Shown here piece after piece: positions 1,181 through 62,670 of a DNA stretch of 64,000 nucleotides. The translations under genes were made by a program, and so were the position numbers. How positions within the stretch are numbered: position 1 is the stretch's first letter; each line of letters opens with the position of its first letter. This DNA is from an uncultured delta proteobacterium (GTDB lineage: Bacteria; Desulfobacterota; Desulfobacteria; Desulfobacterales; JAFDCJ01): assembly GCA_963769935.1 (NCBI GenBank), contig CAVYNY010000020.1, forward strand, positions 32,001 to 96,000, in the 5' to 3' direction. The notes below the pieces were generated by a model. The model had not been told where the DNA came from. It did no database searches and saw only the letters and a list, made by a program, of their open reading frames with translations.

Positions 1181-1280
1181 TCAGTTGTCCGTCGTCCGTG
1201 GTCCGTTGTTATCGTACAACGACATAAATCATTTAAATATTTTTCCAATGAACCACGGACAGCATTCAACTGACCCAATG
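1181..1280. repeat. Inverted 7-bp tandem array pair (GTyGTCC)n
   Basis: gttgtcc gtcgtcc gtggtcc gttgtta, then degenerate inverse ccacggac...caactga. Confidence 0.6.
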
Positions 1281-1560
1281 AGCGCCGGCTCAATTATTCC
1301 TTGACATTATAGACCAATCCGGTATTAACGATTCTTGACTGGCGGATTTATTGCTGTTGTTGAAATCTATACCACTTTGTCAGATCGGCCTATCACGTAT
1401 CTTATCGAGATTTGATCCTGCGAAAAGAGGTATTCGCTTTTTGCCGAATATATTTTAACTGCGGGTCATACCGGGCATTCATCCTCTCATATGTTGGAAA
1501 TAATCTGGTTGATCAGAAAAAGGATCAACACTTGAATTGACAATTCAATGGGAGCACGCC

Positions 1561-2685
1561 ATGCCGTCATACCTCGTAAAGCCGGGTGATACCCTGTCAA
1601 AAATTGCCACCGGCACCTTGGGCTCGGCCGGGAAATGGCGCATCATCGCCGAGATGAACGGCATTGTCAATCCGAGCAAAATTCGGATCGGGCAGCGCCT
1701 GCAGTTACCGGGCGAGGTGATGGAAGTGCCCGGTGTTGTCAACACGGCCGAAGGTGTAAAGCGAGTCGGCAAGGAACGGGTTCGAATATGTACCGAACAT
1801 AATGTGGTTTACGCAACTCCTCTGGTAAAACCGGAAAAGATCTTTGTCGGCCGGCTGTATCGCAAGGGGTTGCATCGGATGGGCGTGCAGGAACCGGAAG
1901 CATTTATTGTCAATCATCACGAGAAGCTGCAGGAGGTCGGCCTGACCGATTCGGAAGTAAATGTGATCCTGGCGACTTCTGAAAATGCCGTTAATATGGA
2001 CGCCGTCGATACCTGGGAAAATCAATTTATCAGTTTCGGCATGTTCCAGTGGACGGCCGGCCTGCCCGGAAAGCCTGGTGAACTCCCCGCGCTGCTGCAG
2101 CTTATAAAGATCGGCTATCCGGATAATTTTCAACATTACTGGGCCCAGTTCGGTTTGGATGTGGCTGAGGTGGGTCACAAATTAGGCTGGTTCACCTATC
2201 GCGGGAAGAAATTAGTCTCAACTGCCGATAAGGCCTTGCTGCGGGAGCATATCTGGGCCTATCGTTTTGCACGGGCAGGTGCTGATATCGAAGTCCAGGC
2301 GGCCCAGATCCAGCACGCTGTTAACCGCATTCACCAGTTTTATTTCGTTAAGTCTTCCAAACTATATGGTTATGCCTTAGCCGACCTGATCTCCTCTGAA
2401 TACGGTGTTGCCCTGCTGTTGGACAATCACGTCAACTGCCCCGGTTATGTCCGCCGCTGTGTGGCCGAAGCTTTGAAATTGAGCAGCTTGACGGCGGCAG
2501 ATCCGACCGGGTGGGAGGACGAGGAAGAGCAACTGGTAATAAAAAATTATTTGGAAATTAGGGAAACCTATGGCAAGCGGCCCATGAGCAATGCCAGACA
2601 ACGGGCCGCAGTCATCCGGGGATATGTGGCCGATGGGATCATTTCGGCCGGCAGAGGATCCTTTGTTTCCAGTTGGCAGGGGTGA
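1561..2685 (+). CDS. LysM domain protein with putative lysozyme-like C-terminal domain
   Basis: YLVKPGDTLSKIA...NGIVNPSKIRIGQRL LysM; SFGMFQWTAG motif; GGGAG before ATG 1561. Confidence 0.75.
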   Translation: MPSYLVKPGDTLSKIATGTLGSAGKWRIIAEMNGIVNPSKIRIGQRLQLPGEVMEVPGVVNTAEGVKRVGKERVRICTEHNVVYATPLVKPEKIFVGRLYRKGLHRMGVQEPEAFIVNHHEKLQEVGLTDSEVNVILATSENAVNMDAVDTWENQFISFGMFQWTAGLPGKPGELPALLQLIKIGYPDNFQHYWAQFGLDVAEVGHKLGWFTYRGKKLVSTADKALLREHIWAYRFARAGADIEVQAAQIQHAVNRIHQFYFVKSSKLYGYALADLISSEYGVALLLDNHVNCPGYVRRCVAEALKLSSLTAADPTGWEDEEEQLVIKNYLEIRETYGKRPMSNARQRAAVIRGYVADGIISAGRGSFVSSWQG

Positions 2686-2833
2686 CTCCCGGGGCGATTA
2701 CGATCGAATACCGTTGAATTGAAATATTCTGAAATTTTATCCTTTTCGCTTTGAATAATCCTCTTTCATGATTATGCTTTCCTTATTCGGATTGGCCGGA
2801 TTCAGCTGAATATTCAGAAAAGCAGGAGGTGCT

Positions 2834-3307
2834 ATGAGTGATCAAGTTGTTTACACATCGAAGGCTAGAATTGAACGGGTAAAAGGACCTTTACGCCGGG
2901 CCTATTTGCCGTTGGTGAAAGACCCGGTTAAATTTGGCGTGCATTCCGAAATAGCCGAGCATTACGGTGTGGATCCAAATGTTCACGAGCCACACGCCAC
3001 AACCCTGGACTATGTGGTTGCCGCGGCCGCCGGCTGACTGACCGGCACGTTTGGCGGCGCGCTGGAAGCGCGCAAGATTCCGGCCGGTGAAGGATATCTC
3101 AGCTCAGAAGCACGCGGCGAAATCGAGAAAGACGGCAATGTCCTGGTAATTAAAAGAATCCGCGTAACCTATCATCTTAAATTAAAACCGGATCAGCGAG
3201 AAACCGCCGAGAGGGTGCATGGTTTTCACGCCGAAAAATGTCCCGTGGCGCGTACGATCAAGGACTGTGTGGATATCGCCACCGAATTGGTCATGGAAGA
3301 CGTATGA
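2834..3307 (+). CDS. OsmC/Ohr-family peroxiredoxin-like selenoprotein (UGA 3035-3037 read as Sec), 157 aa
   Basis: AGGAGG RBS; LDYVVAAAAG-UGA-LTGTFGGAL continues open to TGA 3305-3307 with second OsmC Cys motif HAEKCPVARTI; hairpin follows the UGA. Confidence 0.88.
3041..3088 (+). promoter_or_regulatory. Bacterial SECIS-like stem-loop
   Basis: Outer stem ACCGGC 3041-3046/GCCGGT 3083-3088; inner stem GCGCGCT 3057-3063/AGCGCGC 3067-3073; G-led loop GGA 27 nt after the UGA. Confidence 0.75.
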
Positions 3308-3311
3308 TGCC

Positions 3312-3402
3312 GGTTAAGATGGTTAAGATCGTGTTGATCGCTGGGATCGTTCGGATCGTTGAGATGGTAGGGTTGGTTGAGATTGTTTGGATGGCTGGGG
3401 TA
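3312..3402. repeat. Degenerate 9-bp tandem repeat, about 10 units
   Basis: gttaagatg gttaagatc gtgttgatc gctgggatc gttcggatc gttgagatg gtagggttg gttgagatt gtttggatg gctggggta. Confidence 0.75.
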
Positions 3403-4460: not shown

Positions 4461-4616
4461 GGGTTCACGAAAAAATTAGTTCACAATTTTAGGCGTTGCG
4501 GCGCCCGTCTGGCAAGGCGCGAAAACGCAGGAATATCTGGATATTCCGAGCTTTCGCAACGCAGCCGGGCGGGATGCATCGGCGTATAAAATGTGAAGTT
4601 ATTTTTGAGTGAGCCC
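4461..4616. mobile_element. 156-bp palindromic MITE-like element, copy 1
   Basis: Ends GGGTTCAC/GTGAGCCC; centre GGAATATC-tg-GATATTCC; near-identical to 55179-55334. Confidence 0.85.
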
Positions 4617-4660
4617 TATACGCATCTGATTCCTTTCAGGTGACGTGCTGATCTAAAGGA

Positions 4661-7489: not shown

Positions 7490-7706
7490 AAAATTCCAAG
7501 CACCAAAAATCAAATTTCAAAAAAATCCCAATGACCCAAATTCAAAATTCCAAACAAATGAACCGTCAAATATTGTGATCAATGGCTTAACCGAATGTTC
7601 AACAGGGTTTCAAAAGCGATGCGCCACAATTGGGGTGAATGTTTTGGTCATTGGCTATTGAAAATTGAGATTTATTTGGAATTTGGTGCTTGAGATTTGA
7701 GATTTT
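7490..7706. repeat. About 220-bp dispersed element with AT-rich inverted arms (family B, copy 1)
   Basis: 39-bp block 7523-7561 identical to 51784-51822; right arm GTTTTGGTCATTG...TTTGGTGCTTGAGATTTG. Confidence 0.85.
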
Positions 7707-7748
7707 ATAGCTTCCGAATTTTATCCGGCATCCAGTATCCAAAATTTC

Positions 7749-8704: not shown

Positions 8705-9415
8705 TTATGCCACTCCCAGATACGCCTTTTGCATCAGCGGATTGTCCAGCAGATTTTGGGCGGTGTCATGCAACACAATTTCGCCTGTCTGAAGAACATA
8801 TCCCCGTCCGGCGATCGACAAGGCCATGTTGGCGTTCTGTTCGACCAGAAGCACGGATACCTTCTGGGCTTGGTTGATTTGTTGAATAATTTCAAAGATT
8901 TTATCTACAAACAGCGGCGACAGCCCCATCGAGGGTTCGTCCATTATCAGCAGTTTGGGGCGGGCCATCAGGGCTCTGGCCATGGCCACCATTTGCTGTT
9001 CTCCGCCGCTGAGGGTGGAGGCCAGCTGATTGTAGCGATTTTTGACGACCGGGAAGAGATCGCAGACGCGTGCGATGTCCTGCAGGATCTCTTTCTTATC
9101 TTTCCGAACATAGGCGCCCATGCGCAAATTTTCATGAACCGTCAGGTAAGGGAAAAGACGCCGTGCTTCGAGCACCGGTGAAATGCCCGCCCGCACAATC
9201 GCAGAGGGCGATTGCTTTTCGATCCGCTGTCCCAGAAATTCGATGGTGCCCCGCCGCGGCCTGACCAAGCCCAGAATAGTCTTCATCGTCGTGGACTTTC
9301 CGCAGGCATTGCCGCCCAGCAGCGAGACGATTTCACCGGCTTCAACACTCAGTGAGACGTTGCGCAATGCCTGGATGGGGCCGTAAAACGTGTCGATGTT
9401 ACTCAGTTTGAGCAC
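8705..9415 (-). CDS. livF: Branched-chain amino acid-type ABC ATPase
   Basis: GGNACGKST, LSGGEQQM, MDEPSMGL, AYLG; GTG start 9415. Confidence 0.9.
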   Translation of the reverse strand: MLKLSNIDTFYGPIQALRNVSLSVEAGEIVSLLGGNACGKSTTMKTILGLVRPRRGTIEFLGQRIEKQSPSAIVRAGISPVLEARRLFPYLTVHENLRMGAYVRKDKKEILQDIARVCDLFPVVKNRYNQLASTLSGGEQQMVAMARALMARPKLLIMDEPSMGLSPLFVDKIFEIIQQINQAQKVSVLLVEQNANMALSIAGRGYVLQTGEIVLHDTAQNLLDNPLMQKAYLGVA

Positions 9416-10182
9416 GGTGACGCCCTCCCATATAGGCTTCAATGACATTCTGGTCGGCAGCAATTTGAGCCGGTGGGCCCTCGGCGATCTTCTCACCGTG
9501 GTCCAGCACGACAATGCGATCGGATAGCGTCATGACGACCTTCATTTTATGCTCAATGACCACTACGGTATGCCCGCGATTCCGGATCAAGCGGATCAGA
9601 TCGACGATACCCTGGGTTTCATGGGGATTCATTCCGGCGGTCGGTTCATCCAGTAAAATCAGACGGGGTTCGGATACCAGCGCCCGGGCAATTTCAAGAC
9701 GCCGGCGATTCGCGTAGGAAAGCATATCGGCATCCTGCGTCAACCGCGGCAGAAGTCTTTCACCGAACAAGTGAAATCACCTCCCGACATTTTTCCCTTG
9801 AAGCCATCTCCTCCCGGCCGACCCGGGGAGGACGAAAAAGGGCGCTGAAAATCCCCGTGCGGCCTTTATAATCGTTGCCCACCATGACATTGTCCATGAC
9901 CGTCATGCGATTAAACAGGCGGATGTGCTGGAAGGTGCGCGCTATTCCGCAGCGGGCCACTTCATGGGGCTGCAGGCCGACCAACTCGTTCCCCTGAAAT
10001 TTAATTGAGCCGGTGTTCGGCGGCATGGTTCCCGTAATGCAGTTAAACAGGGTCGTCTTGCCGGCGCCATTGGGCCCGATCAGGCTGATGATATCCCCCG
10101 CATTAATTTGCACGGAAACATTGTGAAGCGCCGCAAGTCCCCCGAATTCCTTGGTTACATTTGTGATTTCCAGCAAAGCCAT
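9399..10182 (-). CDS. livG: Liv-type ABC ATPase, one apparent +1 indel near 9770
   Basis: GPNGAGKTT, RTFQ in ORF 9760-10182; LDEPTAGMN in ORF 9399-9770. Confidence 0.85.
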
Positions 10183-10225
10183 CGAAACGCTTCCGAGTTT
10201 TCAGGTTTATAATGACCCCGGCAAA

Positions 10226-10268
10226 GAATTGCCTAAATTGCCTAAAATGCACTAAAATGCCTAAAATT
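10226..10268. repeat. About 9-bp tandem repeat (TGCCTAAAW) x4 inside the liv operon
   Basis: ttgcctaaa ttgcctaaa atgcactaaa atgcctaaa. Confidence 0.75.
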
Positions 10269-10321
10269 AATGCTGTTAATCGTTTAATGGGTTTATTGAA
10301 TTCAGCTCCAACTCAATCAAC

Positions 10322-11342
10322 TTATTCAGCGTCATCGTCAGGCAGGAATTTATCCCCCCTGGTGTAGACCGTCTTTTGTCGATCGTCAAACCAGGGCAGC
10401 CTCAGGCTGTAGTTTTTACCGCCCAGCAGACCCTGGCGGCGTACCAGCATCATAACGACCAAAATACCGCCGTAAACCAGCATGCGGTATTCCTGCATAA
10501 AGCGAAACACTTCCGGAATAATAACCAGCACAGCGGCACCGACCACCGGGCCGATCAGGTTGCCCTGCCCGCCAAAAGCCAGCATGGCAAGCAGAATGAA
10601 CGACTCGTATATATAAAAGCTGTCCGGGCTGACAAATTTGACGAAATGAGCATAGTAACTGCCGGCAATCCCGGCATAAAATGCCGCCAGCACAAAGGCC
10701 TGAATCTTATATCTGGTTGTGTTCACCCCCATGGCTTCGGCGGCCAGCTCGTTTTCACGGATTCTCACCAGCGCCCGGCCGAATCGGCAGGACATGAGGC
10801 GCTGCATGCTGCCGATGGTCAGCAGCACCAGAAAAAAGATCAGGTAGTAGTATTGCACCCGGGATTCAATCGCGTAGCCGAAAATACTGGGCGATGGAAT
10901 ATCCATGATGCCCAACGGACCGTTGGTAAAGCTCATCCAATTTTGCAGCACCAGAAAAAAGATCATGTTAAAGCCCAGGGTAGCCATCGTCATGTAAATC
11001 CCCGAAAGTCGCAAGCGTGGGTTTGGCGATCAGGTATCCGCAAACACCGGCCACCGACCCCCGCGCCCAGCATGGCCAGGGGAAACGGCAGCCCCGCCTC
11101 CATGACTAATTTGGCCGACGCATAGGCGCCGATGCCGTAAAACGCGGCATGGCCGATGGAAAGCAGACCCACGTACCCGTTTAACAGGTTTAAGCTCAGG
11201 GTCAGGATAGATATAGATGCCGATGAAAATCAGTACCTGAATGTAGTACTGATTGCTGATAAACAGGGGCATGAGTGCCATTATCGCGACAATGGCGAGA
11301 TAGGGCAAGATTGGCCAGGATCTGTCGCAAGGCGTGTGTCAT
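10322..11342 (-). CDS. livM: Liv-type ABC permease, about four apparent +1 indels
   Basis: Reconstructs as SLNLLNGYVGLLSIGHAAFYGIGAY, RLSGIYMTMATLGF, IRENELAAEAMG. Confidence 0.8.
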
Positions 11343-12250
11343 CAATCCCCCCGGGCCTGAATAAGCTCCCTGCCGCCGAACAATCCTCCCGGCCGGAAGA
11401 GCAGGATCAGAATCATAAACAGGAAGGAAAATAAATGACGAAAATTGGAGGCGCCAAATTCCACCGAAAACGTTTCGACAATACCGATGATGCAGGCCGG
11501 CCACCACCGCTCCGGGCAAGCTGGTGAGCCCGCCGACGACGCTTGCGCTGAATGCTTTCAGACCATAAAGCCCACCCATCGTTGGATAGAATAAATTGTA
11601 ATAAACACCGACCAGAACGCCGGCCACGCCGCCCAGCATGGAGCCGATGGCAAAAGCGACCATAAAGATACCGTTTACGCCGACGCCCATGGCATAGGCG
11701 GCTTCATAATCCTGGGCGGTTGCCCTGATCACCATTCCGAGCTTGGTTTTGTTGATCAGGAGATACAGCAGCGCCATCAGCAGCACGGTCACTCCGAGAA
11801 CCGTCATTTGCAGGTAACTGAAATATAGATGCCGCCGATTTCGATTTCGCCATAATCCATTTTGTCCAGAAGGGAATAGGGAATAGCTTGCGTTTCGGGA
11901 CCCCAGATCAGCTGGGCCAGGTTGACCAGCAGGATGGAAATGCCGATGGTGACCAGCAAAGAGGTGGCATGCGGGGCATCCCGCAGAAAGTGAAAAGCCA
12001 GAATTTCGATGATAACGCCCAACAGGGCGGTGGCGGCCATGGCCACCGCCAGCGCCAGAAAAAAACTGGGGTGCAGCAGCCTTATCACTTCAAAGCCGAC
12101 ATAAGCCCCGATCATGTAAACTTCCCCATGGGCAAAGGTCACCATGCGCAGCGTTCCGAATATCATGGTAAATCCCAACGCCAGCAGGGCGTATACACTG
12201 CCCTGGGTGATTCCATTGATCAACTGCTCAAAGAGGATTTGAATGTCCAT
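11342..12250 (-). CDS. livH: Liv-type ABC permease, apparent indels near 11815 and 11492
   Basis: QLINGITQGSVYALLALGFT, FAHGE, IRATAQD, reconstructed LLFRPGGLFG. Confidence 0.8.
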
Positions 12251-12344
12251 CGGGGTTCTGACACATTCAAAATGCGAAAGCACGAAATTTTTTACATCGT
12301 CTTCGTGCTTCCGCGATGAATTCCGTTAGGATGCGGGTGGTCAT

Positions 12345-17811: not shown

Positions 17812-18003
17812 AGAGTTGCGTGTTCGTTACGTGTTGCGAGTTGCGTGTTACGAGGTGCGAGTTGCGTGTTGCACGGTGCTGTGTTACGCATTGCGCATAA
17901 GGGTTGCAGGAATATTACGGGTTTCCAGATTGCTCGCTTAGCAATATAAGTGTAAAAGAAGTCGTCCTTTAACCCGTAACCCAAAGCCGTAGACCCGTAA
18001 CGC
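17812..18003. repeat. 7-bp tandem array (GTTRCGW), about 11 units, with degenerate inverse array
   Basis: gttgcgt gttcgt tacgt gttgcga gttgcgt gttacga ggtgcga gttgcgt; inverse cccgtaac units at 17971-18003. Confidence 0.8.
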
Positions 18004-18007
18004 GTTC

Positions 18008-19489
18008 TTAAAACCAGCGCTGAATGACCACCTTGGTATCCGTAAAGAAATTAAAAATTTCCTGACCATGGGCTTTGGTGTCGCCAAAAAAAGAGTTGCC
18101 GGCACCGCCAAAGGGAAAGAAACTCATCGGGGCCGCAATGCCGATATTTATGCCGACCATGCTGGGCAAAACCCGATATTTAAATTCACGCGCGGTCGCA
18201 CCATCACTGGTATAGATACAGGCTGCGTTGGCAAAGCCGCGGGTATTAATCAGATCGATAACCTCGTCCAGATTTTTGGCTCGAACCACGCTCACGACGG
18301 GTCCAAAGATTTCTTCTCTGGCAATGGTCATGTCCGGTTTGACGTTATCAAAAATGGTCGGCCCGACGAAAAACCCGTTTGGGAATTCCGGCACCGTAAA
18401 ATTCCGGCCGTCCATTACCAGATCGGCACCTTCTTCGATTCCCTTTTCAATGTAGCCCAGAACTCTTTTTTTGTGCGCGGCGCTGACCACGGGTCCCATT
18501 GCCGTTTTTTCATCCAGCCCGCTGCCGACTTTCATATTTTTCGCGGCGGCACTGAATTTTTCAAGCAGTTCATCGGCAACGTCTCCCACCGGCACCAGCA
18601 CCGAACCGGAAAGGCAGCGTTGCCCGCTGCAGCCATAAAAAGAGGTAATCAAAGAGGGCATGCCGGCTTCCAGATCGGCGTCGGGCGTAACCGCCACGAT
18701 GTTTTTGGCGCCGCCCAGAGCCTGAACTCTTTTGCCGGTCGCACCACAGCGCTCATAGATATATTTTGCCGTGGGTGATGATCCGACGAAAGAGATGCCT
18801 TCGATATCGGGATGATCCAATAAGGCCGTTGACGACATCCCGGGAACCGTGCACCATGTTGACAACGCCTTCCGGGAAGCCGATTTCATCCATAATCTCA
18901 AAAATTTTGGTCTGGGTCATGGGAACCTGTTCGGACGGTTTAACGATATAGGTATTGCCGGTTACAAGGGCATAGGGCAAAAACCACCAGGCCACCATGC
19001 CCGGGAAGTTGTAGGGAACGATTGCAGGCGAAGACGCCCATGGGTTGACGGTGACCCATAGCAGTCAATGTCTTTGGCGATATCTTCAAGGGTATACCCG
19101 CACATCAAGGTGGTGACACCGGTGGCATGCTCTACATTCTCGATCATGCGCCGCACTTCCCCCCGCGCTTCGTCGATGCATTTGCCCTGCTCGGTAGTCA
19201 GAACCCGGGCGATGTCTTCAAAATTTTCTTCAAAAGCATCTTTGAGCCGGAACAGGTAGCGGGCACGGGATAGTGGCGGTGTGGTGCGCCAATTCCAGTA
19301 AGCATCCCTGGCAGCCTTGACCGCTTTGTTCACATCGTTTGCCGTTCCATAGGCTACCTGGGCTATTTTTTCACCCAGGGCCGGATTCCATACGTCACCG
19401 ATTGTTGTGGAATCGGATTCAACCCATTCACCGTTAATGTAGTTTTTCATTAACGGCAGTGATTTTTCTTTGATTGCTGGCAGCGACAT
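18008..19489 (-). CDS. mmsA: CoA-acylating (methyl)malonate-semialdehyde dehydrogenase, three apparent +1 indels
   Basis: PYNFP (reconstructed), KPSE, SFVGS, ALGGAKN, GQRC, EEIFGPV, FPFGG. Confidence 0.88.
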
Positions 19490-19599
19490 ATCGTTTCCTC
19501 CTTTGTCGGTTTGGTTTAGTTGGTAAGTGGTAATGATATATTCTGTTTTCAAGGGGCGCAGGTGAATGAACAGACTGCTGACATTACCAATTTTGAGTC

Positions 19600-20303: not shown

Positions 20304-20363
20304 GAACAGGGGTTGCATTTACCCCTTATTATCCGACGAACACATAAGAGACACTATCGTCAA

Positions 20364-20456
20364 ATGGCAAAGCGCAGAGAGCAAAGCGCATAGCGTTTGA
20401 AAAACGGATTTTTTTACTTTTCTTTACCCGGTGCCCCATGCCCTGTGCGCTCTGCC
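20364..20456. repeat. Inverted 7/14-bp array pair (GCAAAGCGCAKAG)
   Basis: gcaaagcgcagagagcaaagcgcatagcg, then ccatgccctgtgcgctctgcc; related to 14876-14904 and 44615-44650. Confidence 0.65.
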
Positions 20457-20527
20457 TTTTCGCATGCTAAGAATTTTATCGACTCTGAGCGGTATCAGGT
20501 AAAGGTTTATTTTTTCACTATTTCGCG

Positions 20528-38886: not shown

Positions 38887-38970
38887 AAGCTCAACGTTCA
38901 AGGCTGAAGGCTCAAAGTAAAGCGACTTTTTCTTTTTAACTATGAACTATCAGCTATGAGCTATCAGCTT
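38887..38970. repeat. Inverted 7-bp array pair
   Basis: agctcaa cgttcaa ggctgaa ggctcaa, then ctatgaa ctatcag ctatgag ctatcag. Confidence 0.75.
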
Positions 38971-38988
38971 TAAAGCGAAGCTTTAACC

Positions 38989-40179: not shown

Positions 40180-40392
40180 GATAGAAGCTTGAATGCCGGA
40201 AGGTCGGGAAGGTTTATTATAGCATTGAAAACCTTGTTCTCTGGGTCAGGTCAGAGAAGATTGGCTTTGCCGTGAATGAATGTCTTGGAGTATTGGCCCG
40301 CCCTGGCGCGACGTACTGAGAATTTAAAGCATGGTTTTACCGTTCTTTACTTGCCTTCCAATACTGTCAACCCCGGTGTAGGTCAGGACAAT

Positions 40393-41175
40393 TCAACCAT
40401 TCAATCCATACAATTGACATGTATTCTGCCAGACAATTTGAGCCAGTTCAGCCGGGTCCTCTTTTCGCACTTCAGCCAACTTCATAAGGACCGATTTTAC
40501 AAAGGCGGGTTCATTGCGTCGGTTGTGTTTTTTTTCCGCTGCCGGAACCAGATACGGTGCATCGGTTTCCACCAGCAGACGGTCGGCCGGTATGGTGGGG
40601 ACGAGTTGGCGCAGTTGAGCCCCGCGGCTTTCCATGGTTAAAATACCGGTAATGCCGATGTGAAGCCCCAAAGCAAGGTATTGATCGAGTTCGTCCAGAT
40701 CGCCGCTGAAACAGTGGACAACCCCGTTTATTTCAGCAAGCCCCTGACCTTTAAGGATTTCAAGAAAGCGGCCGTTGCTGTCCCGCTCGTGAAATATCAT
40801 CGGCATTCCCAATCCGCCGGCAATTTCGAGTTGTCTTTCAAACCATTTTTCCTGATCCTTCCTGGGTGAGTGCATGCGGTTGAAATCCAGGCCGATTTCC
40901 CCCCAGGCGCGAACCTGTTCGGTTTTGGCGAGACCGGTAAGATAGCGGAGTACGGGTTCGCTGCAATTTTTTACATCGTGCGGATGGACCCCTACCGAGG
41001 CATAGACGCCTTTGAGGGATTGGGCCAGTGAAACCGCCTTACCGGAGGTTCTCGCGTCAACGCCGACGGTCATCATGCGCATAACCCCGGCCTCGTGTGC
41101 ACGATCCAAAACAGCGTTGAAATCTTTAGCATAGGATTTGTCATCAAGATGACAGTGACTGTCGAAAATTTTCAT
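40393..41175 (-). CDS. tatD: TatD family nuclease
   Basis: DSHCH, GVHPH, GEIGLD, VHCF, ETDAPY. Confidence 0.95.
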   Translation of the reverse strand: MKIFDSHCHLDDKSYAKDFNAVLDRAHEAGVMRMMTVGVDARTSGKAVSLAQSLKGVYASVGVHPHDVKNCSEPVLRYLTGLAKTEQVRAWGEIGLDFNRMHSPRKDQEKWFERQLEIAGGLGMPMIFHERDSNGRFLEILKGQGLAEINGVVHCFSGDLDELDQYLALGLHIGITGILTMESRGAQLRQLVPTIPADRLLVETDAPYLVPAAEKKHNRRNEPAFVKSVLMKLAEVRKEDPAELAQIVWQNTCQLYGLNG

Positions 41176-41220
41176 AATAATTAATCCGCCTGCGCTTCGG
41201 TCTAACTCCTTTTTAGGCCC

Positions 41221-41350
41221 TTAGTTGTGGTTTCTTTGCGTTTTATGGAAAAATATTTTTATCACGAAAACACGGAACCTTGAAAGTACGAAATTTATCT
41301 TGTCCGCTTTTCGTGGTTTCGTCCTTTCGTGCTTTCGTGATTAATTTGTC
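41221..41350. repeat. Family C element, copy 2 (inverted)
   Basis: Reverse complement aligns to 21770-21908. Confidence 0.8.
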
Positions 41351-41551
41351 CTTTTTGCTTCCGGCTTGTCCGGGTTAGGTTTTCAAAGAGCAAATTTCAA
41401 CCAGAATATGGTATATTTCGGAGCGGATTAATTATCCTTGATTTAATTCATGGCTTTTGAGAATATGCTCTTTTCAAATGGCTGATACCACGGCCCTCAC
41501 TCATCGGACGGTCGGCTGCAAAAATATCGAAATAAACGCTGGAGGTCTATA

Positions 41552-42382
41552 ATGTTTAAAGTTGTCAAACGCGAAGAGATGTCCGCGGGCAACGTCATTC
41601 TCAATGAGATCGAAGCCCCAAAGATAGCCCGCAAGGCCAAACCCGGTCAGTTCGTCATTCTGAAAGTGGGCGAAGACGGCGAGCGTATTCCATTAACCAT
41701 GGCGGAGGCGGATGCGGAAAAGGGTACCATAACGGTAATTTATATGGTCGTCGGCAAATCCACCGCCCTGTTTAAAACCCTGCAGGTGGGTGACAGCTTC
41801 CAGGATGTCATCGGGCCGCTGGGCAAACCCACCCACATTGAGAAGCTCGGAAAGATTGTGTGCGTGGGCGGCGGTACGGGAATTGCTGTTTTACATCCCA
41901 TTACGCGGGCCATGAAAGAAATCGGCAACCACGTTATCAGTATTATCGGTGCGCGCAGCAAGGATTTGCTGATATTGGAAGACAAAATGAGGGCCGCCTC
42001 AAATGACCTGCGGGTTTGCACAGACGACGGCTCCTACGGGCACCACGGATTTGTCACCGAGGTGCTGAAAGACATCCTCGAAAACGAGAAAATCGATCAG
42101 GTTGTAGCCATCGGACCGGTGCCGATGATGAAATTTGTGTCCTTAATCACTAAAGAATATAATGTACCGACCCTGGTCAGTTTGAATCCTATCATGGTAG
42201 ATGGCACCGGTATGTGCGGCGGGTGTCGCGTCACTGTGGGGGGCAAAACCAAATTTGCCTGCGTGGACGGTCCTGAATTTGACGGGCACCAGATCGATTA
42301 TGATGAGTTGATGCGCAGGCTCCAGGCCTACTGCGAGGATGAGAAAAAGTGTTATAATGAATTTTGCATTTTGGAGCGCTAG
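41552..42382 (+). CDS. nfnA: Electron-bifurcating transhydrogenase small subunit
   Basis: GERIPLT, GPLG, GGGTG, DGTGMCGGC, CVDGPEF; paired with a GltD-like gene. Confidence 0.88.
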   Translation: MFKVVKREEMSAGNVILNEIEAPKIARKAKPGQFVILKVGEDGERIPLTMAEADAEKGTITVIYMVVGKSTALFKTLQVGDSFQDVIGPLGKPTHIEKLGKIVCVGGGTGIAVLHPITRAMKEIGNHVISIIGARSKDLLILEDKMRAASNDLRVCTDDGSYGHHGFVTEVLKDILENEKIDQVVAIGPVPMMKFVSLITKEYNVPTLVSLNPIMVDGTGMCGGCRVTVGGKTKFACVDGPEFDGHQIDYDELMRRLQAYCEDEKKCYNEFCILER

Positions 42383-42387
42383 CTGAA

Positions 42388-42436
42388 ATTGAATATTGAA
42401 GATTGCATATTGAATATTCAATCGAAAATATTCAAT
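42388..42436. repeat. Family D element with no spacer, between nfnA and nfnB
   Basis: attgaat attgaag attgcat attgaat at TCAATCGAAAATATTCAAT. Confidence 0.8.
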
Positions 42437-42531
42437 GGTGGCAGGAAAGTGAAAATATTCCAATGCATTTTACTTGCCATCCAATGCCCAAAATTAACAA
42501 CTAAGAATCAATGTCCCGGGAGAATGAATTA

Positions 42532-43953: not shown

Positions 43954-44250
43954 AAAATCACACAACAGCAGACAGATGTGATGGAACAAACAACCCAATA
44001 AAGGTTGCAGGATTAAAATGCCGGGCCGATAAAACGTTATCGACCCGGCGAAGCTTCTAGAATTGAAAACCTGGTCCTCTGGGCCAGGATTCTCTTTACT
44101 ATTTTACTGGTGATCCCGCTTAATTCCCTTCTGCCCTGTTAATTAAAAGGAATCCTATATTTGTGTGGCCCAGCGGTCGGCGTGCAGATTTCGCAGCGAC
44201 CCAAATTCTGAAAATGCAATATACGGACTATTTTAGAGTAGGAGTTAATT

Positions 44251-45221: not shown

Positions 45222-46329
45222 CTATTTTCTAACCTGCTTCTTTGCCAGCAGCACCCCTTCAATAAACGGATCGATGCCGCCATCCAGCACGTCGTTAACA
45301 TTGCCCACATCCAGGTTAATGCGGTGATCCTTTACCATCTGGTAGGGATGCAGGACGTATGAGCGGATCTGGCTGCCCCAGGCAATATCCTCCTTGCTGT
45401 CGTGGAGCTGCTGCATCTTTTCATCCTGTTTTTCCCGTTCGCGCTGGTATAGGCGGGCTCTGAGAACTTTCATAGCCAGATCCTTGTTGCGATGTTGAGA
45501 TTTTTCCTGCTGGCATTGCACCACAATTCCGGTCGGCAGATGGGTGATGCGCACCGCACTGCTGGTTTTGTTGACATGCTGTCCCCCCGCACCGCTGGCC
45601 CTGAAAACATCAATACGCAGATCTTTTTCATCTATGTCGACAACGATTTCGTTGTCCAGTTCAGGGTAGACAAAGACCGATGCAAAGGACGTATGCCGCT
45701 TACCGCTGGCGTTAAAAGGGGATATCCTTACCAGACGGTGGACGCCGATTTCCGATTTAAGATAGCCGAATGCATTTTCACCTGCGGCCGTAAATGTAGC
45801 GCTTTTGATCCCTGCTTCATCGCCCGGCTGAAAATCGATTAATTCAAATTTGAATCCCCTGCGCTCGATCCAACGCGCATACATTCTGAAAAGCATTTCA
45901 GCCCAATCCTGGGCTTCCGTGCCGCCGGCGCCGGCATTGATCGATACAATGGCATTTTTGGAATCATCTTCTCCGTCCAACATCAGATCGAGAGACAGCT
46001 GATCGATCAGCTCGTCAAGTGCATTTGCCTGTTGGGAGACTTCGTCAAGGGTGCCGGCATCGGATTCCTCCAGGGCCAGATCCAGCAGAATCCGGCTTTC
46101 CTCCAGGTCGTTCCACAGTTTCTTAAAGCGGTTGATTTTATGGGAAATTAAGCTTCTTTCTTGGAGAATCGATTTGGAATCTTCAGGATTGTCCCAGAAG
46201 CCGTTCCTGGCAATTGTGGCTTCAATTTCAGCCAGGCGTTTTTCCAGGCCATCTAAGTCAAAGATAGCTCCGCAGGTGTTCTAATTTTAATTTAAGCTCA
46301 TTTAAATTTTGCTTTAATTCTATCGACAT
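45222..46329 (-). CDS. prfB: Peptide chain release factor 2, +1 programmed frameshift, about 368 aa
   Basis: ATG 46329; CTT-TGA-C at 46263-46257 with upstream GGAG; SPF and GGQ motifs. Confidence 0.97.
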
Positions 46330-46346
46330 TTTAAATTCCCCCTTTT

Positions 46347-46432
46347 ATTGATTGAATATTTACGATTGAAGATTGAATATAATAGGATAGAATACCCTGA
46401 ATATTCAATAGACATTCTTCAATATTCAATTT
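46347..46432. repeat. Family D element (inverted) between lnt and prfB
   Basis: attgaatatttacgattgaagattgaatat is the reverse complement of the family D end motif. Confidence 0.8.
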
Positions 46433-46437
46433 TTGGT

Positions 46438-51728: not shown

Positions 51729-51967
51729 AAAATACCAAGCACCAAATTTGTAAATCCCAAAACACAAAACACAAATATCAAACAAATCCCAATGACCCAA
51801 ATTCAAAATTCCAAACAAATGATCCGCCTCCAGTTATGCTCAATGCCATCATCACAGGTAGACCTGGGTTTGTGAAGCGAATCGATACCACGGTGGTAAC
51901 TGTTTTGGTCATTGAATATTGAAATTTGTTATTTATTTGTAATTTGGTGCTTGAGATTTGTGATTTT
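51729..51967. repeat. Family B element, copy 2
   Basis: Arms match 7490-7706; core colinear but diverged. Confidence 0.85.
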
Positions 51968-52096
51968 ACCATTCGTTAGGTTCCTCTGATTCAAGTTGTA
52001 TAGGAGTTACTTTCGCACTACCGTGTATCCTGTTGATATTATCTTGATATTTGAATGTGAAAAAGTGTAAATCCTTCTTAATCTTTACCAGAGGGG

Positions 52097-52447
52097 GTGT
52101 TGCGGGCGGCAGCCAAACGAAGTTTGCACTGGGCTTGGGTAATTCCGGCAATCTGCTTTGTCGATCTTTTTATCAATTATTCGGTTCGTCTGGGTTACGG
52201 CGTGGTTTTGCCGGAAATGATTCGCAACCTCGGGTTCGGCCGGGCCGCCGGCGATTACTTCCCCCGGGCAGTCATGGGAACCGTCATCGGCGCCTGGACG
52301 CCTTTTTACGGGCTCGGCGCTATTTTAACTCATTGGGTAACGGGTATCCTGCGGGATGCCACCGGGGTTTATGATCATGCTTTTGTGCTTAATATTCTGA
52401 TGGGCGCAGTGGCCGTCGTGTTGATGGCCCTGGTGCGTAAAAGATAG
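52097..52447 (+). pseudogene. MFS transporter remnant (first TM fused in frame to last two TMs)
   Basis: HWAWV...RLGYGVVLPEMIRNLG joined to AGDYFP...GILRDATGVYDHAF; 116 aa. Confidence 0.75.
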
Positions 52448-52550
52448 TGAATAGTGAAGATTGAAAATTGAACATTTGAGGTATACTGTCAATATTATAT
52501 AAATCGAAATGCATTGATTTTAGGCATTTCCATCATCGGGACATCGATAA

Positions 52551-53980: not shown

Positions 53981-54280
53981 GAACCAGGTGTCAGCGCCGC
54001 CGCCGGCCAAAACAACGGCCGGTCTGATCATAAAAGAAACTTTTGGAAATCGGACACAGTTGGATTTAATATCACGCCCACTTCGTTAGAGCTCACAGAG
54101 ACCGCAGAGAACATTTTTCTTTCGCCGCAGGCGCCTGTAAACCCAGACCTCTGTGATCTCCGAGCGCTCTGTGTGAGATGAAGTTTCATATGAGCGCCGC
54201 CTCCGGCCGCAAGCCTGAATAGCGGATAGTTCGATCAAGGATGAAGCTTTTTTGGTACGTGGACGAATTTTAAAGATGTT

Positions 54281-54353
54281 GTGGGAGCGGTTTCCATCCG
54301 CGATTAATTTGGTCGGGCCAACACGTGTAATCGTGGTTAAAACCCACTCCCAC
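54281..54353. repeat. GTGG-type REP doublet (REPIN-like)
   Basis: GTGGGAGCGGtttccatCCGCGAT, spacer, inverted ATCGTGGttaaaacCCACTCCCAC. Confidence 0.7.
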
Positions 54354-54511
54354 CAGGAATTAACTTCAACCCTCAAAATAGCCATAGATTGCGTCGAATT
54401 TCATACGCCCACCGCTTCTGGCTGGCAGCGTTCCGTCTGATCTTAGATAAAACTTAATATAGCCTCACACGAGGTGTCAGAGCCACTATTGGACGCTAAA
54501 GTGTCCATCCC

Positions 54512-54580
54512 ACCAGCCGCCGGCATCCAGAATCCAGCACCCAGTATCCAATATCAAGTATCCAGTATCCAGCGACCGGA
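54512..54580. repeat. 7-bp tandem array (ATCCAGY)
   Basis: atccaga atccagc acccagt atccaat atcaagt atccagt atccagc; short copies near 7722 and 48210. Confidence 0.8.
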
Positions 54581-55178: not shown

Positions 55179-55334
55179 GGGTTCACGAAAAAATTAGTTC
55201 ACAGTTTTAGGCGTTGCGGCGCCCGTCCGGCAAGGCGCGAAAACGCAGGAATATCTGGATATTCCGAGCTTTCGCAACGCAGTCGGGCGGGATGCATCGG
55301 CGTATAAAATGTGAAGCTATTTTTGAGTGAGCCC
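55179..55334. mobile_element. 156-bp palindromic MITE-like element, copy 2, flanked by TTA
   Basis: Four substitutions versus 4461-4616; TTA at 55176-55178 and 55335-55337. Confidence 0.85.
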
Positions 55335-55804
55335 TTAGCTTACCCGTTACATTTTAGATGGATCCGGCTGAACTTGTGCCCCAATTCAGCCGCCGTAGCT
55401 CTCAGATTTCATGACCGAGCCCGGCGTTCTAATTGCAACGAATTCCATAAGCGAAAAATGCCCCAAAGCAGCACCGACTTCAGTGCTGCCCATCGCCGGA
55501 AATTTCCTCCAAACCTCCGGGCGAATGCGGGACGGTATCACCGTGCGTATTTATCGAACAGTGATTTCCTCCGAAATCAAGAACTTCTCCCGAAAAAATT
55601 GGCAACTTGATGACATCAATTGTGGACGCGGCAAAAAATTCACGCCAAAAACGGATGCCTGTTCGGGAAAGTTCCTGATAGCTATTATCGGGATCTTTAA
55701 AATAAAGTTTAGCATTAATTTTTTGCTTGACAGCTCCGGTTTCATATTATATCGGACCAATATCATCTTATTTATCTTATTTTTTAAATTAACCAGGAGG
55801 GCTC

Positions 55805-56260
55805 ATGCGACTCATCCGGGCGGGAGAATACGCGGTTCGTTGTATGCTGTATCTTGCATCGCAGGGTGTGGGGGTTGTGTGCAGCCGTAAACAAATTGCG
55901 GCCGAAATGGACATCCCCGATCAGTTTCTGAGCAAAATTGCCCAGCAGCTGGCACGCTCCGGTTTTCTCGAAATTATTCAAGGTGCCAAAGGGGGGTTGA
56001 AGCTGGTGGTTCCCCCCGAGTTTTTATCGCTGTTGGATGTGGTTGAGGCCGTAATCGGTGAAATTTTTTTAAACGACTGCGTGATGCGGCCCGAATCCTG
56101 CCGGCGCAGCCGGGCCTGTTCAGTGCATCAAATTTGGGAAAAAGCCCGCAATCAACTGAGGGATACCTTGCGTCAGGCCACCTTCGCCAGTCTGCTGGAA
56201 AATGACAGTTGTCTTATTCCTTTTGACCAGGCGGGTGAAAAAAGCGAACAGGCGTGTTAA
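55805..56260 (+). CDS. Rrf2-family regulator with three Cys (Fe-S type)
   Basis: EYAVR, FL.KI.QQL, GAKGG, CxxxxxxCxxxxxC. Confidence 0.92.
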   Translation: MRLIRAGEYAVRCMLYLASQGVGVVCSRKQIAAEMDIPDQFLSKIAQQLARSGFLEIIQGAKGGLKLVVPPEFLSLLDVVEAVIGEIFLNDCVMRPESCRRSRACSVHQIWEKARNQLRDTLRQATFASLLENDSCLIPFDQAGEKSEQAC

Positions 56261-56372
56261 AGGTTAAAGGGGTTCAAAGCTCTTCTTTCAATGTCGAAGA
56301 AAATATGCGAGAACCGATTCAATCAACCTGTCAATTATTCACCGCTTATCCATACAGCAAGGAGGGTAATTA

Positions 56373-58797: not shown

Positions 58798-59043
58798 GGG
58801 CCGCCGATTTATCTCCTATCCGCATTTGACCCCTAAAATTCCATTTTTCTCCCCGATCCGTAGGCTCTCCAAGCCGGAGGCCATCATTCCATTTAAAGCT
58901 CGCTGTAAACTTCCGTCTGACCGCGCCTGATTCCGCCTCCCAATGATCTCTTGACCCTAATTTTAATTTTTCGTTGCTATAAATAGAAAACATGCTACAA
59001 GTATGACCTTACCCAGCGAATCGAAATTAAAGGAGAGACTGCC

Positions 59044-60558: not shown

Positions 60559-60605
60559 CCTCCTAATCCATCAACCATTCAACGAAACCGAAAGGAGATT
60601 TGGCT

Positions 60606-61601
60606 ATGAAAAGAGTGATGATGGTTTTAGCTTTACTTTTGTCGTTCGGGCTTGTCTTTGGCAGCGGGCTCTCAGCCAAAATGATTCGCATCGGCGAACA
60701 CCAGATCGTCTCCCATCCGGCCCTGGACAACGATTCCAAGGGCTTTAAGGTGGCCCTGGAAGAAGAAGGATTCATTGAAGGCAAAAATATCGAAATTGAG
60801 CGCCTGAATGCCCAGGGCGATCAGGCCAACTGCGCGATTATCGCCCGCAAATTCGTAGATGATCAGGTGGACCTGATCCACGCGATCAGCACACCCAACG
60901 CTCAGGCGACGGTCAAACTCACCAAGACAATACCGATCGTCTTTTCATCGGTGACGGACCCGGTCGCAACCGGGATCATACCCAAAATGGGAGAAACCGG
61001 GACCAATGTCACCGGTGTGAGCGACCGCTGGCCGATTGCGCTGCAATGCAAGATGTACCAGGACCTGGTGCCCACCGCCAAAAGATGGGGTACCATCTAC
61101 AACCCCGGTGACGTCAATGTCACCTTTCACATCAAGCTGATGAAAGAGGCTGTTGAAGCTCTGGGCGGACAGCTCATCGAAGCCCATATCTCAAACAGCT
61201 CCGAAGTAATGCAGGCCGCTCAGAGCCTGGTCGGCCGGGTGGATGCCATTCATATTACTTCCGACAACAACGTGGTTTCGGCCTTCGAAGCCCTCGTCAA
61301 AGTCTGCGATGAAAACAAGATCCCCCTGTTTGCGGGCGACCGCGACAGTGTGCCGCGCGGGGCCATAGCCGCCTATGGCCTGGACTATTTCATGGTCGGT
61401 TACACCGCCGGCAAAAAAGCAGCTCTGATTTTAAAAGGTGCCGATCCCGGTAAAGTCCCCGCGGGCCTGGCATCCGGCTACAGTCTGTGGGTCAATTTGA
61501 AAGCCGCCGATGCACAGGGCGTCCACCTGCCCTTAACGTTGGTGGAAAAAGCGGCCGACAAACTCTGGGATCAGGACGGCAATGTAGTCAAGGGCAGATA
61601 A
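60606..61601 (+). CDS. ABC substrate-binding protein (putative aromatic amino acid type)
   Basis: QIVSHPALD, NAQGD, PIVFSSVTDP, NVTGVSD. Confidence 0.9.
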   Translation: MKRVMMVLALLLSFGLVFGSGLSAKMIRIGEHQIVSHPALDNDSKGFKVALEEEGFIEGKNIEIERLNAQGDQANCAIIARKFVDDQVDLIHAISTPNAQATVKLTKTIPIVFSSVTDPVATGIIPKMGETGTNVTGVSDRWPIALQCKMYQDLVPTAKRWGTIYNPGDVNVTFHIKLMKEAVEALGGQLIEAHISNSSEVMQAAQSLVGRVDAIHITSDNNVVSAFEALVKVCDENKIPLFAGDRDSVPRGAIAAYGLDYFMVGYTAGKKAALILKGADPGKVPAGLASGYSLWVNLKAADAQGVHLPLTLVEKAADKLWDQDGNVVKGR

Positions 61602-61671
61602 GCCTGATGTCGAAAAGATCGGGGCAGGGGGCGGATAAATTCCCCTTCCCCGACCAATTTAGGTGATTCTA

Positions 61672-62574
61672 ATGATGCTGTATGGACTTTGGCGAACCAT
61701 TCCCGTCTCCCTGGAGCAGGGCTTGGCCTATGCCCTGGTGGCGGTGGGAATTGTTATCAGTTTCCGCATCCTGGCGTTTCCCGATCTGACCGTTGACGGC
61801 AGTTTTGCCCTGGGCGGTGCCGTGCTGGCTCGCCTGATTTCCGATGGCGTCCCGCCCATATACGGCATCCTGCTGGCGGTGCTGTGCGGGTTTCTGGCCG
61901 GATGCTGCACGGGGTATTTGAATACGCGCTTGAAGATCAACAGCCTGCTGGCCGGCATTTTAGTGATGACCATCCTGTATTCGGTCAACCTGCGGATCAT
62001 GGGACGATCCAATATCCAGCTGTTGACAGTGGATACGATTCTGACGCCCCTGGAGAACATGCACGTCAGCCGCTTTATTCCTATTATTGCGTTTTTTTTC
62101 CTGGTAACGTTCGTTATCAAGTTTTTAACGGATATGTTTTTTCGCACCCAGATAGGATTTGCGATGCGGGCGACCGGCGACAACGAGCAGATGATTCGAA
62201 CCCTGGGGGTCAACACCGATCGCATGACCGTCTTGGGACTCGGCATTTCCAACGCTTTCGTGGCGCTGTCCGGGGCTCTGGTTGCCCAGGATCAGGGGTT
62301 TTCCGATATCGGGATGGGCATCGGCATGATCGTCGCCGGCCTGGCGGCCATTATTATCGGCGAAACCCTTGTCGGCAAACGCTCGGTGCCGCAGATGACC
62401 CTGGCTGCGATCGTCGGGTCAATCATCTACAAGTTCATTATCTCCCTCGGACTCAGACTGGGTCTGGCACCTACCGATTTGAAACTGGCCACCGGGATAA
62501 TGGTCATTTTGGCGCTCGGATTCCCGGCCCTCAAAAAGAAGAAAGAAGGCAAACTGCATTTGCGGGGCGTATAA
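61672..62574 (+). CDS. ABC permease
   Basis: FRIL.FPDLTVDGSF, RATGDN, GLAAIIIGE. Confidence 0.92.
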   Translation: MMLYGLWRTIPVSLEQGLAYALVAVGIVISFRILAFPDLTVDGSFALGGAVLARLISDGVPPIYGILLAVLCGFLAGCCTGYLNTRLKINSLLAGILVMTILYSVNLRIMGRSNIQLLTVDTILTPLENMHVSRFIPIIAFFFLVTFVIKFLTDMFFRTQIGFAMRATGDNEQMIRTLGVNTDRMTVLGLGISNAFVALSGALVAQDQGFSDIGMGIGMIVAGLAAIIIGETLVGKRSVPQMTLAAIVGSIIYKFIISLGLRLGLAPTDLKLATGIMVILALGFPALKKKKEGKLHLRGV

Positions 62575-62581
62575 AATCAGC

Positions 62582-62670
62582 GTATTGGAGTACTGGAGCG
62601 TTGGAGTAATGGCTATAAGGTTGGATGTCTTTTTTTCAACACTCCAATACTCCATCACTCCAGTACTCCA
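62582..62670. repeat. Inverted 8-bp array pair (TGGAGTAY / ATACTCCA)
   Basis: gtattgga gtactgga gcgttgga gtaatgg, then acactcca atactcca tcactcca gtactcca. Confidence 0.85.

Follow-up and report, generated by a model that had tools for sequence, protein, structure and literature searches.

Between the protein genes of the window, the whole stretch of 64,000 nucleotides analysed here (an uncultured delta proteobacterium, contig CAVYNY010000020.1, positions 32,001 to 96,000), stand many short tandem arrays of 7-9 bp units, which are probably the leftover arms of small mobile cassettes resembling intervening sequences (IVS), in which a gene for a four-helix-bundle protein (PF05635) or a GxxExxY protein lies between two inward-facing arrays. 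The observations behind this reading are the layout of arms and gene, the match between unit and protein clade, the placement at stop codons, partial deletions, homologous spacers dispersed over the genome, and the turnover of array families at given sites. A carrier was found for one family only, TGGAATAA. Throughout, G-numbers denote genomes (G000 the genome of the window, the others congeners), C-numbers contigs and L-numbers cargo or element loci; the window is thus G000:C20:32001-96000. G000 comprises 8.0 Mb in 41 contigs (96.7% complete, 5.4% contamination), and the genus sample consists of 23 genomes. Genes outside the window come from a simple gene caller (6469 genes, 76% coding), and distances to start codons are approximate.

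Arrays across the genome

Tandem Repeats Finder (TRF) was run on G000 and on a locally shuffled version of it. Arrays with at least three copies numbered 1133, 500 and 265 for periods 7, 8 and 9, against 9, 8 and 2 after shuffling, and the arrays noted in a preliminary description of this DNA are beyond chance. A second, purpose-made detector reported 2158 arrays (1885 intergenic) in G000 and 108 in its control. Arrays occur in 1135 of the 3893 gaps of at least 60 bp, about three in ten, and they are found in 863 of 2754 co-directional gaps (31%), 161 of 502 convergent gaps (32%) and 111 of 637 divergent gaps (17%).

The inverted pairing noted in the same description is confirmed, with qualifications. 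A reverse-complement partner within 300 bp was present for 435 of the 1766 intergenic arrays that are not self-complementary, compared with 48, 66 and 76 when the partner sought was the reversed unit, the complemented unit or the unit of another array, and inward partners within 300 bp were counted in 484 of 1487 cases and outward ones in 2; at the strict threshold, however, only about a quarter of the arrays are paired, and five arrays of the window stand alone. A second array in the same direction accompanied 208 of the 1766. Polarity is fixed, as a given unit lay on the left side in 246 of 247 one-sided cases across 20 families. Over the 335 distinct pairs the median length of the spacer is 74 bp. 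At 181 of 827 outer arm edges a stop codon is no more than 5 nt away, compared with a start codon at 11 of 648, and all three frames contain stops in the left arm of 59 of the 335 pairs and in the right arm of 21.

The spacers are themselves related: homologs at other loci exist for 154 of 249, and among the 498 spacer-homologous pairs 301 have a common unit (7% expected). Among the pairs of at least 80 bp, 153 of 291 have a full-length homolog elsewhere, five of them at 98-100% identity. An inner stem motif is common to the ATTGAAG, AAAATGCCT, AATGTCG and AATGACG arms, and units, even periods, therefore diverge from one ancestor. Outer flanks are conserved in the AATAATGG (14/20), AAAACACG (24/42) and AACATCG (11/17) families; over all families the figure is 100 of 868 outer against 216 of 868 inner flanks, and for AAGATTG (the ATTGAAG family) 2 of 116 against 73 of 116. 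As most families thus lack conservation beyond the arms, it is the arms that would form their ends. The motif GCTTCGC was considered as a common outer end and rejected, occurring at 11 of 1487, near background.

Cargo genes and their units

G000 contains seven four-helix-bundle (TIGR02436) genes and, for GxxExxY, one intact gene and one broken match. Six of the seven lie between inward arrays, three of them with units also seen in the window (ATCCAGC, TGGAGTA, ATTGAAG), and the seventh, located at the end of a contig, has arrays in the same direction; no arms enclose the intact GxxExxY gene. Neither type of gene was found in the window, as had been noted, and only cassette-end remnants are present there. 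We know of no function for PF05635 proteins, which we take to resemble Avd.

PF05635 genes occur in 23 of 23 genomes of the genus, with 164 matches. Of the 157 matches in congeners we retrieved 83, for the most part those with the highest scores, and 76 had enough flank. When the unit list of G000 was used, 38 of these 76 loci had inward arms and 13 outward ones. When units were instead derived de novo, inward arms were found at 70 of 83 four-helix-bundle genes (the 76 congener loci, six own genes and one IS91-borne gene), compared with 6 when flanks were swapped. For the GxxExxY genes of the genus the corresponding counts are 12 of 23 and 1, and their units include two of the window, CACAGAG and CACGAAAA. 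The association with both gene types mentioned in the preliminary description is borne out here. Cargo genes are co-directional with the upstream neighbour in 65 of 65 cases and with the downstream neighbour in 53 of 60.

In a tree of 80 four-helix-bundle proteins, built on a short alignment in which long branches meet, well-supported clades have units of their own, including CGGGTTG, AAGATTG, AAAGCTC, ATGCTGG, AATGGAGT and AAATTCC. The units had been called unrelated, and they do differ by locus; they also track the clades of the cargo proteins, and several share the inner stem motif and descend from one element. A list of what the arms enclose, one of the checks that had been suggested, covered 58 intervals of 200-1500 bp in G000; only four-helix-bundle genes recurred, and the non-recurring intervals were nested repeats or host genes.

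Turnover at orthologous junctions

A comparison of orthologous sites, likewise suggested at the outset, found empty, filled and other-family states among the congeners. At the junction of ABC transporter genes (62574-62730), where both genes are present in 23 of 26 loci, the gap measures 2 bp in the closest ortholog (88-91% amino acid identity) and -4 to 16 bp in 20 others, and in one genome another 7-mer pair stands there. The junction at the AAA ATPase gene (38885) is empty in 4 of 22 genomes and holds at least five unit families, some of them stacked, in the rest (by eye). Between lnt and prfB, three of 17 genomes have ATTGAAT arrays, nine the CCGGTT type, two AAGCTGGT and three none (by eye). 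The preT-preA and 42384 junctions are likewise empty or occupied by other families, the former with other unit families in place of the pair at 28671-28885, the latter with a gap of 22-61 bp in 4 of 9 genomes. In 4 of 4 congener blocks the corresponding gap is without the arms at 31609-31822.

The converse comparison starts from the cargo. For congener cargo loci with both neighbours mapped, the neighbours are adjacent in G000 in 47 of 58 cases, and among the gaps listed are ones that are empty and ones that hold another family, the same cassette, or the same arms with a deleted gene. Whole genes in a congener correspond to deleted remnants within the same arms in G000 at least at L096 (C16:272195-272472), L193 (C2) and L197 (C1), and G020 has arms with a deleted four-helix-bundle gene at a window junction (by eye). 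The suggestion that the arms of a cassette outlast its cargo is thereby supported.

Run X4 comes from an RNA library that has no matching DNA, and its contigs, which share about 98-99.6% identity with the window, differ at several arrays: 42386-42483 is cleanly absent, 33065-33238 is replaced by 30 other letters, and two extra units are present at 31819. The simplest reading of these differences is one of strain. The clean join of 42385 to 42484 is more likely a loss, because G018 has the same arms and tail.

An IS91-type carrier of one family

Six identical PF05635 scores in G007 led us to six copies of one element, 99.2-100% identical over 1.3 kb and located at different sites, plus a seventh. 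Its layout is a left end, a TGGAATAA arm, a four-helix-bundle gene, a Y2 transposase gene, an open reading frame (ORF) of small size, the right arm and a conserved right end, and whole elements measure 2.1-2.2 kb (about 2.15 kb); four of the G007 copies are internally deleted forms of 1.6 kb. The transposase carries the domains PF04986 (E 3e-42) and PF14319 (E 5e-23), and the best Protein Data Bank (PDB) rows for its predicted structure are mostly HUH relaxase or nickase domains, none of them reaching E 0.001. From the family to which it belongs the element is predicted to move by rolling circle, and because near-identical copies stand at different sites we infer recent movement. Inspection by eye of 25 elements flanked on both sides revealed no target-site duplication, and no empty site was found for them.

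A metagenome scan gave 80 loci, many of them near-identical and not independent. The four-helix-bundle gene is directly upstream in 43 of the 47 loci with 450 nt of flank, ending 2-7 bases before the transposase start, and the transposase is whole (415-419 aa) in 19 loci. For the IS91-borne four-helix-bundle gene dN/dS is 0.03-0.08 (8 of 15 pairs with unsaturated dS), and for the transposase 0.03-0.07, values which place the gene under purifying selection like the transposase. The encoded protein matches XCC0516 (PDB 2gsc) with E 3e-7.

Derivatives of the element are more widespread. Of 301 genomes of the order, 31 contain the left end together with the start of the arm, with as many as 24 occurrences in one genome, and reversed controls contain it 0 times. 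From 11 of 30 left-end loci the right end is reached within 50-392 bp with neither gene present; gene-less derivatives of 96-392 bp occur across the order, and the short derivatives align as a deletion series with scraps of all three genes. The left end is preceded by GAAC in 13 of 30 loci and by CAAG in 6 of 30. In G000, a remnant on C13 retains a deleted four-helix-bundle gene and the first transposase codons, an empty pair on C24 retains the left end along with a fragment of the small ORF, and right-end sites number 16, against 0 in the reversed genome. The TGGAGTA-armed gene of G000 falls within the protein clade of the IS91-borne gene (support 100/99), which ties the window pair at 62582 to the IS91-borne lineage by kinship only.

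Beyond these loci the association is sparse. A GTDB scan gave 77 loci, of which only four have the four-helix-bundle gene upstream, and two of these four nearly duplicate copies counted above. The genus has 30 IS91 loci, and only those of G007 and G010 contain the gene, the others lacking arms as well; the two Y2 genes of G000 itself have no arms or cargo gene (by eye). Among the loci listed, transposase relatives at 50-56% identity have both ends and the small ORF, but neither the four-helix-bundle gene nor arms; one lineage therefore acquired arms and gene, with the arms around the whole gene set and not the four-helix-bundle gene alone. The N-terminal half of the transposase (E 1e-40) was found in 0 of 401 genomes of the order, a sample that left out G007 and G010.

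Other candidate carriers were tried and rejected, there being no arm pairs around 11 Y1 transposase, 9 reverse transcriptase and 5 GIY-YIG genes; none of the 11 Y1 genes has an array within 1.2 kb. Rep_1 had no match anywhere, which is uninformative. Four group II intron-like reverse transcriptase copies, 98-99% identical, lie at C11:192203, C11:463309, C17:221555 and C13:597130; two of them are directly upstream of Y1 transposase genes, and arrays were not found nearby.

A hairpin of 30-40 bp has inserted into the transposase gene, the four-helix-bundle gene and the TGGAATAA arms of the IS91-type element (L107-L112), and the same hairpin is present at window 58850-58885 and at many sites of G000. 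Recombination between two copies of it appears to have made the 1.6-kb deletion form. At L108 (G007:C17) an IS91-type copy is nested in the spacer of another family's arm pair, and the spacers of two short derivatives, L440 and L442, carry the inner stem motif of the ATTGAAG superfamily.

Weighing the explanations

Several findings weigh against a cassette origin of the arrays. About three quarters of them have no strict partner, and some 1,900 arrays contrast with only seven four-helix-bundle and one or two GxxExxY genes. A protein-level cargo match (E <= 0.01) was obtained in only 9 of the 3893 intergenic regions, six being the known genes, and most empty pairs therefore cannot be tied to a lost gene. 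The clades of the protein tree partly reflect a single inherited site and are hence not independent; one four-helix-bundle clade (L095, L106, L161, L162, L164, L175) is without clear arms; and many blastn matches of the window loci span arms only. No insertion was caught alongside its empty site, and the window has no IS91 end, with none of the 16 right-end sites of G000 located there; the only trace of the IS91-type element is the match to its small hairpin at about 58.9 kb. Arm pairing has no bias towards one RNA strand (133:112; 39:25, p 0.11; 119:129, p 0.47), and covariation in seven short IS91-type derivatives yielded a term of -0.3 kcal/mol and no support, which leaves the RNA-stem step without independent support from either test. 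As an observation apart, the armless clade has a conserved, cysteine-containing ORF of 116-135 aa after the gene in 5 of 6 loci.

One could also extend the TGGAATAA case to all families and regard them as non-autonomous derivatives of IS91 or other HUH transposons, resembling MITEs (miniature transposable elements with inverted repeats), with the arms as a panhandle joining the ends and the four-helix-bundle protein as an accessory factor. The layout does hold for the TGGAATAA family, in which the gene is intact, under purifying selection and placed just before the transposase start, the position of orf121 in IS91 (bioRxiv 2025.01.24.634351; statements on this and the other cited papers extend to the portions of their text on which we drew). 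For the arrays at large we consider such an origin unlikely, as G000 has no more than 16 sites with the conserved right end, most families show no conservation of their outer flanks, transposase relatives keep the ends without arms or gene, the remaining IS91 loci of the genus are without the gene, and the 11 Y1 genes have no arrays nearby. Even less probable is that arrays arise in place by polymerase slippage and local template switching, with cargo genes merely among them. Heptamer slippage has been proposed in literature cited by PMC4679880, unit number varies among close relatives (the two additional units at 31819; an arm of 17 copies at C11:329888), and solo arms are many and coding remnants few; yet neither the fixed polarity nor the homologous spacers at unlinked sites, the copies at 98-100% identity and the unit-clade match would be expected, and the spacer homology by itself already weakens the proposal. 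The preference for transcribed gaps (31% and 32% against 17%), the closeness to stop codons, the good folding and the cleavage of the Coxiella IVS stem by RNase III (PMC4990558) would all suit hairpins selected by the host as regulatory RNA, whether RNase III sites, stabilisers or terminators tuning operons. We regard this as very unlikely, given that congeners have either nothing or other families at the same junction, that there is no sense-strand bias and that no Rfam match was found in the window; effects of the hairpins on expression may exist as a by-product.

The cassette origin, which we prefer, could proceed as follows. A cassette would land co-directionally just behind a host stop codon, where the stops of the left arm and a stem folding the insert out of the mRNA would make landing in operons nearly harmless. 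Each cassette lineage would carry its own unit, which would drift by slippage and arm-to-arm correction, giving one form and many sequences. The interior would then likely be deleted, and after loss of the gene the arm pairs would persist, stack and decay to solo arms. The common mobilising process envisaged in the preliminary description is supported by a transposon for one family only, and most empty pairs have no detectable coding remnant. For the other families we can only guess at movement in the form of single-stranded DNA, either through HUH enzymes that act in trans or through hitch-hiking on other elements, and rate this as somewhat less likely than not. More speculatively still, the four-helix-bundle proteins might be accessory factors of HUH rolling-circle transposition and the arrays panhandles closing the moving strand and folding the insert out of the host's mRNA, with each clade recognising its own unit; bacterial 7-9-base repeats would then be debris of widespread single-strand cassettes, and the IS91-type element their first intact autonomous member, a generalisation that is rather unlikely to hold as a whole.

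Loci in the window

The arrays named in the preliminary description were all found at their places, including the five ATTGAAT sites (28673, 33094, 42388, 46350 and 52444), and further arrays were located at 3312, 7490, 10227, 21784, 35085, 41260, 51735, 56250 and 58815 (Table 1). By hybridisation, 13 of 14 tested pairs beat shuffles (z -2.6 to -6.0), the exception being 17812. No partner was found within 600 bp of the arrays at 54512, 52444, 10227, 3312 and 56250. By blastn, 18 of 21 window loci match the flank of a cassette, often through the arms alone.

Table 1 Arrays of the window, with positions counted from its first nucleotide
Array	Position	Strand	Remarks
GTCCGTT-type pair	1179-1275		left arm 1179-1209, degenerate right arm ~1250-1274, missed by periodic test, yet fold z -5.1; divergent gap; unit also at preT-preA junction of G016; no blastn match to cargo cassette
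9-mer GATCGTTGG-type solo left arm	3312-3390	+	matches arms of four-helix-bundle cassette L089
AAATTCC/AAATCCC pair	7490-7710		duplex z -4.5; ends match 5' end (start codon included) and 3' end of L191/L193/L195, interior absent (E 1e-15, 7e-13)
AAATGCCT 9-mer solo arm	10227-10270		within frameshifted ABC operon; matches cassette L182
GTTGCG/GTTACGG pair	17812-18005	-	between aldehyde dehydrogenase and next gene; weak complementarity, duplex z -1.1; unit that of cassettes L096/L124/L166/L168
GCAAAGC/GCATAG pair	20358-20465		convergent gap; z -3.3; unit also flanks four-helix-bundle genes L159/L160/L174
CACGAAAA 8-mer pair, GxxExxY-type arms	21783-21872		fold z -7.2; matches GxxExxY cassettes L379/L386
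ATTGAAT pair	28671-28885	+	inside operon, begins at stop codon of preT-like oxidoreductase 27318-28670
GACAGA-type arms	31609-31822		two convergent genes, each with an arm at its stop codon; possibly a single pair, possibly two solo left arms; z -2.8; unit flanks four-helix-bundle gene L082
ATTGAAG pair	33092-33225	-	between co-directional genes; G020 has short empty gap
AAATTCC-family arm	35085-35145		matches 3' end of cassettes L191/L195
GCTCAA/GCTGAAG left arm, CTATCAG right arm	38885-38972	+	between AAA ATPase and 396-aa gene; z -4.7; unit that of cassettes L088/L090
CACGAAAA pair	41260-41345		z -6.0; 94% identical to copy on contig C10
ATTGAAT pair, zero spacer	42386-42440	+	3 bases after stop codon of 41552-42382
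ATTGAAT pair	46345-46435	-	between lnt and prfB
AAATTCC pair	51735-51968		z -4.7; matches both ends (start codon included) of four-helix-bundle cassettes, interior absent (E 3e-17, 1e-16)
ATTGAA solo left arm	52444-52490	+	overlaps upstream stop codon; G015 has another family here
CACAGAG 9-mer pair, GxxExxY-type arms	54086-54185		unit flanks GxxExxY genes L377/L378/L388/L392
ATCCAGT solo right-type arm	54512-54575		at stop codon of minus-strand gene; unit flanks G000 four-helix-bundle gene C20:251449
GGTTAAA short solo left arm	56250-56280	+	overlaps Rrf2 gene stop codon
TTCCAT degenerate right arm	58815-58895		interrupted by small hairpin also present within IS91-type element
TGGAGTAY pair	62580-62672	+	between ABC permease and ATPase; duplex z -5.6, fold z -8.2; unit flanks four-helix-bundle gene C9:239289, in protein clade of IS91-borne gene

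In the AAATTCC clade (L191, L193, L195; window 7520 and 51790) the repeats of the left arm take in the beginning of the four-helix-bundle gene, its start codon and the first codons. Remnants of a tail found after TTCCAT right arms in many G000 copies are present at 40215-40335 and 44045-44100, and a tail of this type precedes the IS91-type right end at C7.

The window is otherwise occupied by ordinary metabolic and transport genes. Frameshifts at 8705-12283 and 18008-19552 split an ABC ATPase, two permeases and an aldehyde dehydrogenase, through decay or assembly error. In prfB (~46255-46330) a CTTTGA site, that of the programmed frameshift, is kept in 17 genomes. Two near-identical palindromic elements of 160 bp without tandem units lie at ~4461-4618 and 55180-55338; the second copy has high depth in public runs, and a relative sits within the left flank of cassette L189. 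An imperfect palindrome, GTGGGAG...CTCCCAC, at 54275-54355 between the 54092 and 54512 arrays has what we take to be the appearance of a repetitive extragenic palindrome (REP). A dispersed element ending GGCGGATTAATT is found at ~27100-27156, 41175-41195 and 41415-41432, and also at operon junctions in several congeners.

Comparison with known systems

The 23S rRNA of Coxiella burnetii and Leptospira contains IVS with an S23p (PF05635) gene and complementary ends, and the Coxiella IVS has GACAGAT heptamers, RNase III cleavage, variation in unit number and ORF deletions (PMC4990558). The cassettes resemble them in having a four-helix-bundle gene within complementary ends, which form stems in 13 of the 14 window pairs tested, in the similarity of GACAGAT to the window arms at 31611, and in unit-number variation and ORF deletions. 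In contrast to the location of IVS in rRNA helices, all window loci are between protein genes, and there are dozens of unit families, mostly gene-less, with about 1,900 arrays per genome. By analogy, the window pairs would work like IVS cassettes without being IVS by location.

The IS91 family (IS91, IS801, IS1294) is defined by a Y2 HUH transposase with a zinc-binding domain by two unlike ends, one of them at GTTC/CTTG, by the lack of a target-site duplication and by rolling-circle transposition via single-stranded circles (bioRxiv 10.1101/2025.01.24.634351). The TGGAATAA element of G007 and the metagenomes has such a transposase (PF14319 and PF04986) and such unlike ends, with GAAC/CAAG as the complements of GTTC/CTTG, and has a small gene coupled upstream. 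It differs in that the upstream gene encodes a four-helix-bundle protein, whose kinship with orf121 is not shown, in the second small ORF after the transposase, in the tandem arms inside both ends and in the deletion series down to about 100 bp. Most window pairs are without these ends, and no window arm pair has both IS91-type ends outside its arms. Judged by the features that can be tested in sequence, the G007 element thus appears to be of the IS91 family, and the window pairs do not.

REP sequences and bacterial interspersed mosaic elements (BIMEs) are likewise numerous palindromes between genes, located at their 3' ends and believed to owe their dispersal to the HUH enzyme TnpA-REP (PMC3333891). 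The arms described here differ from them in being tandem arrays with cargo genes, and the Y1 genes of G000 are without such arrays nearby. Searches of the open literature turned up neither a report of such arms flanking these genes at sites other than rRNA nor one of an IS91 element that carries a gene of this kind.

Cyanobacterial short tandemly repeated repetitive sequences (STRR) are a comparable repeat class, and the features of heptamer repeats, intergenic tandem heptamers near stops and partly in inverted pairs, are all present in G000; most of the units listed here are without GGG. In Xanthomonas and Nostoc, inverted pairs of GGGAATC and GGGGA(C/T)T, respectively, are convergent and near stop codons, with 70 and 75 cases in Xanthomonas (PMC4692102), and the TAACTGA repeats of Beggiatoaceae have stops in all frames and, in the portions of that paper used here, no evident transfer mechanism (PMC4679880). 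The likeness extends to intergenic position near stops, aligned genes, convergent pairs and units with all-frame stops. As far as those portions go, the two papers treat one unit per genome and name no cargo or carrier, whereas here there are many units, each linked to a clade of cargo proteins. Many bacteria have an over-representation of heptamer repeats, with an origin left unexplained in the portions of the heptamer literature cited. The present genome ties many such units to cargo clades and to fast turnover at operon junctions, and the 2.15-kb IS91-type element makes both the origin of the repeats and the role of the four-helix-bundle protein directly testable.

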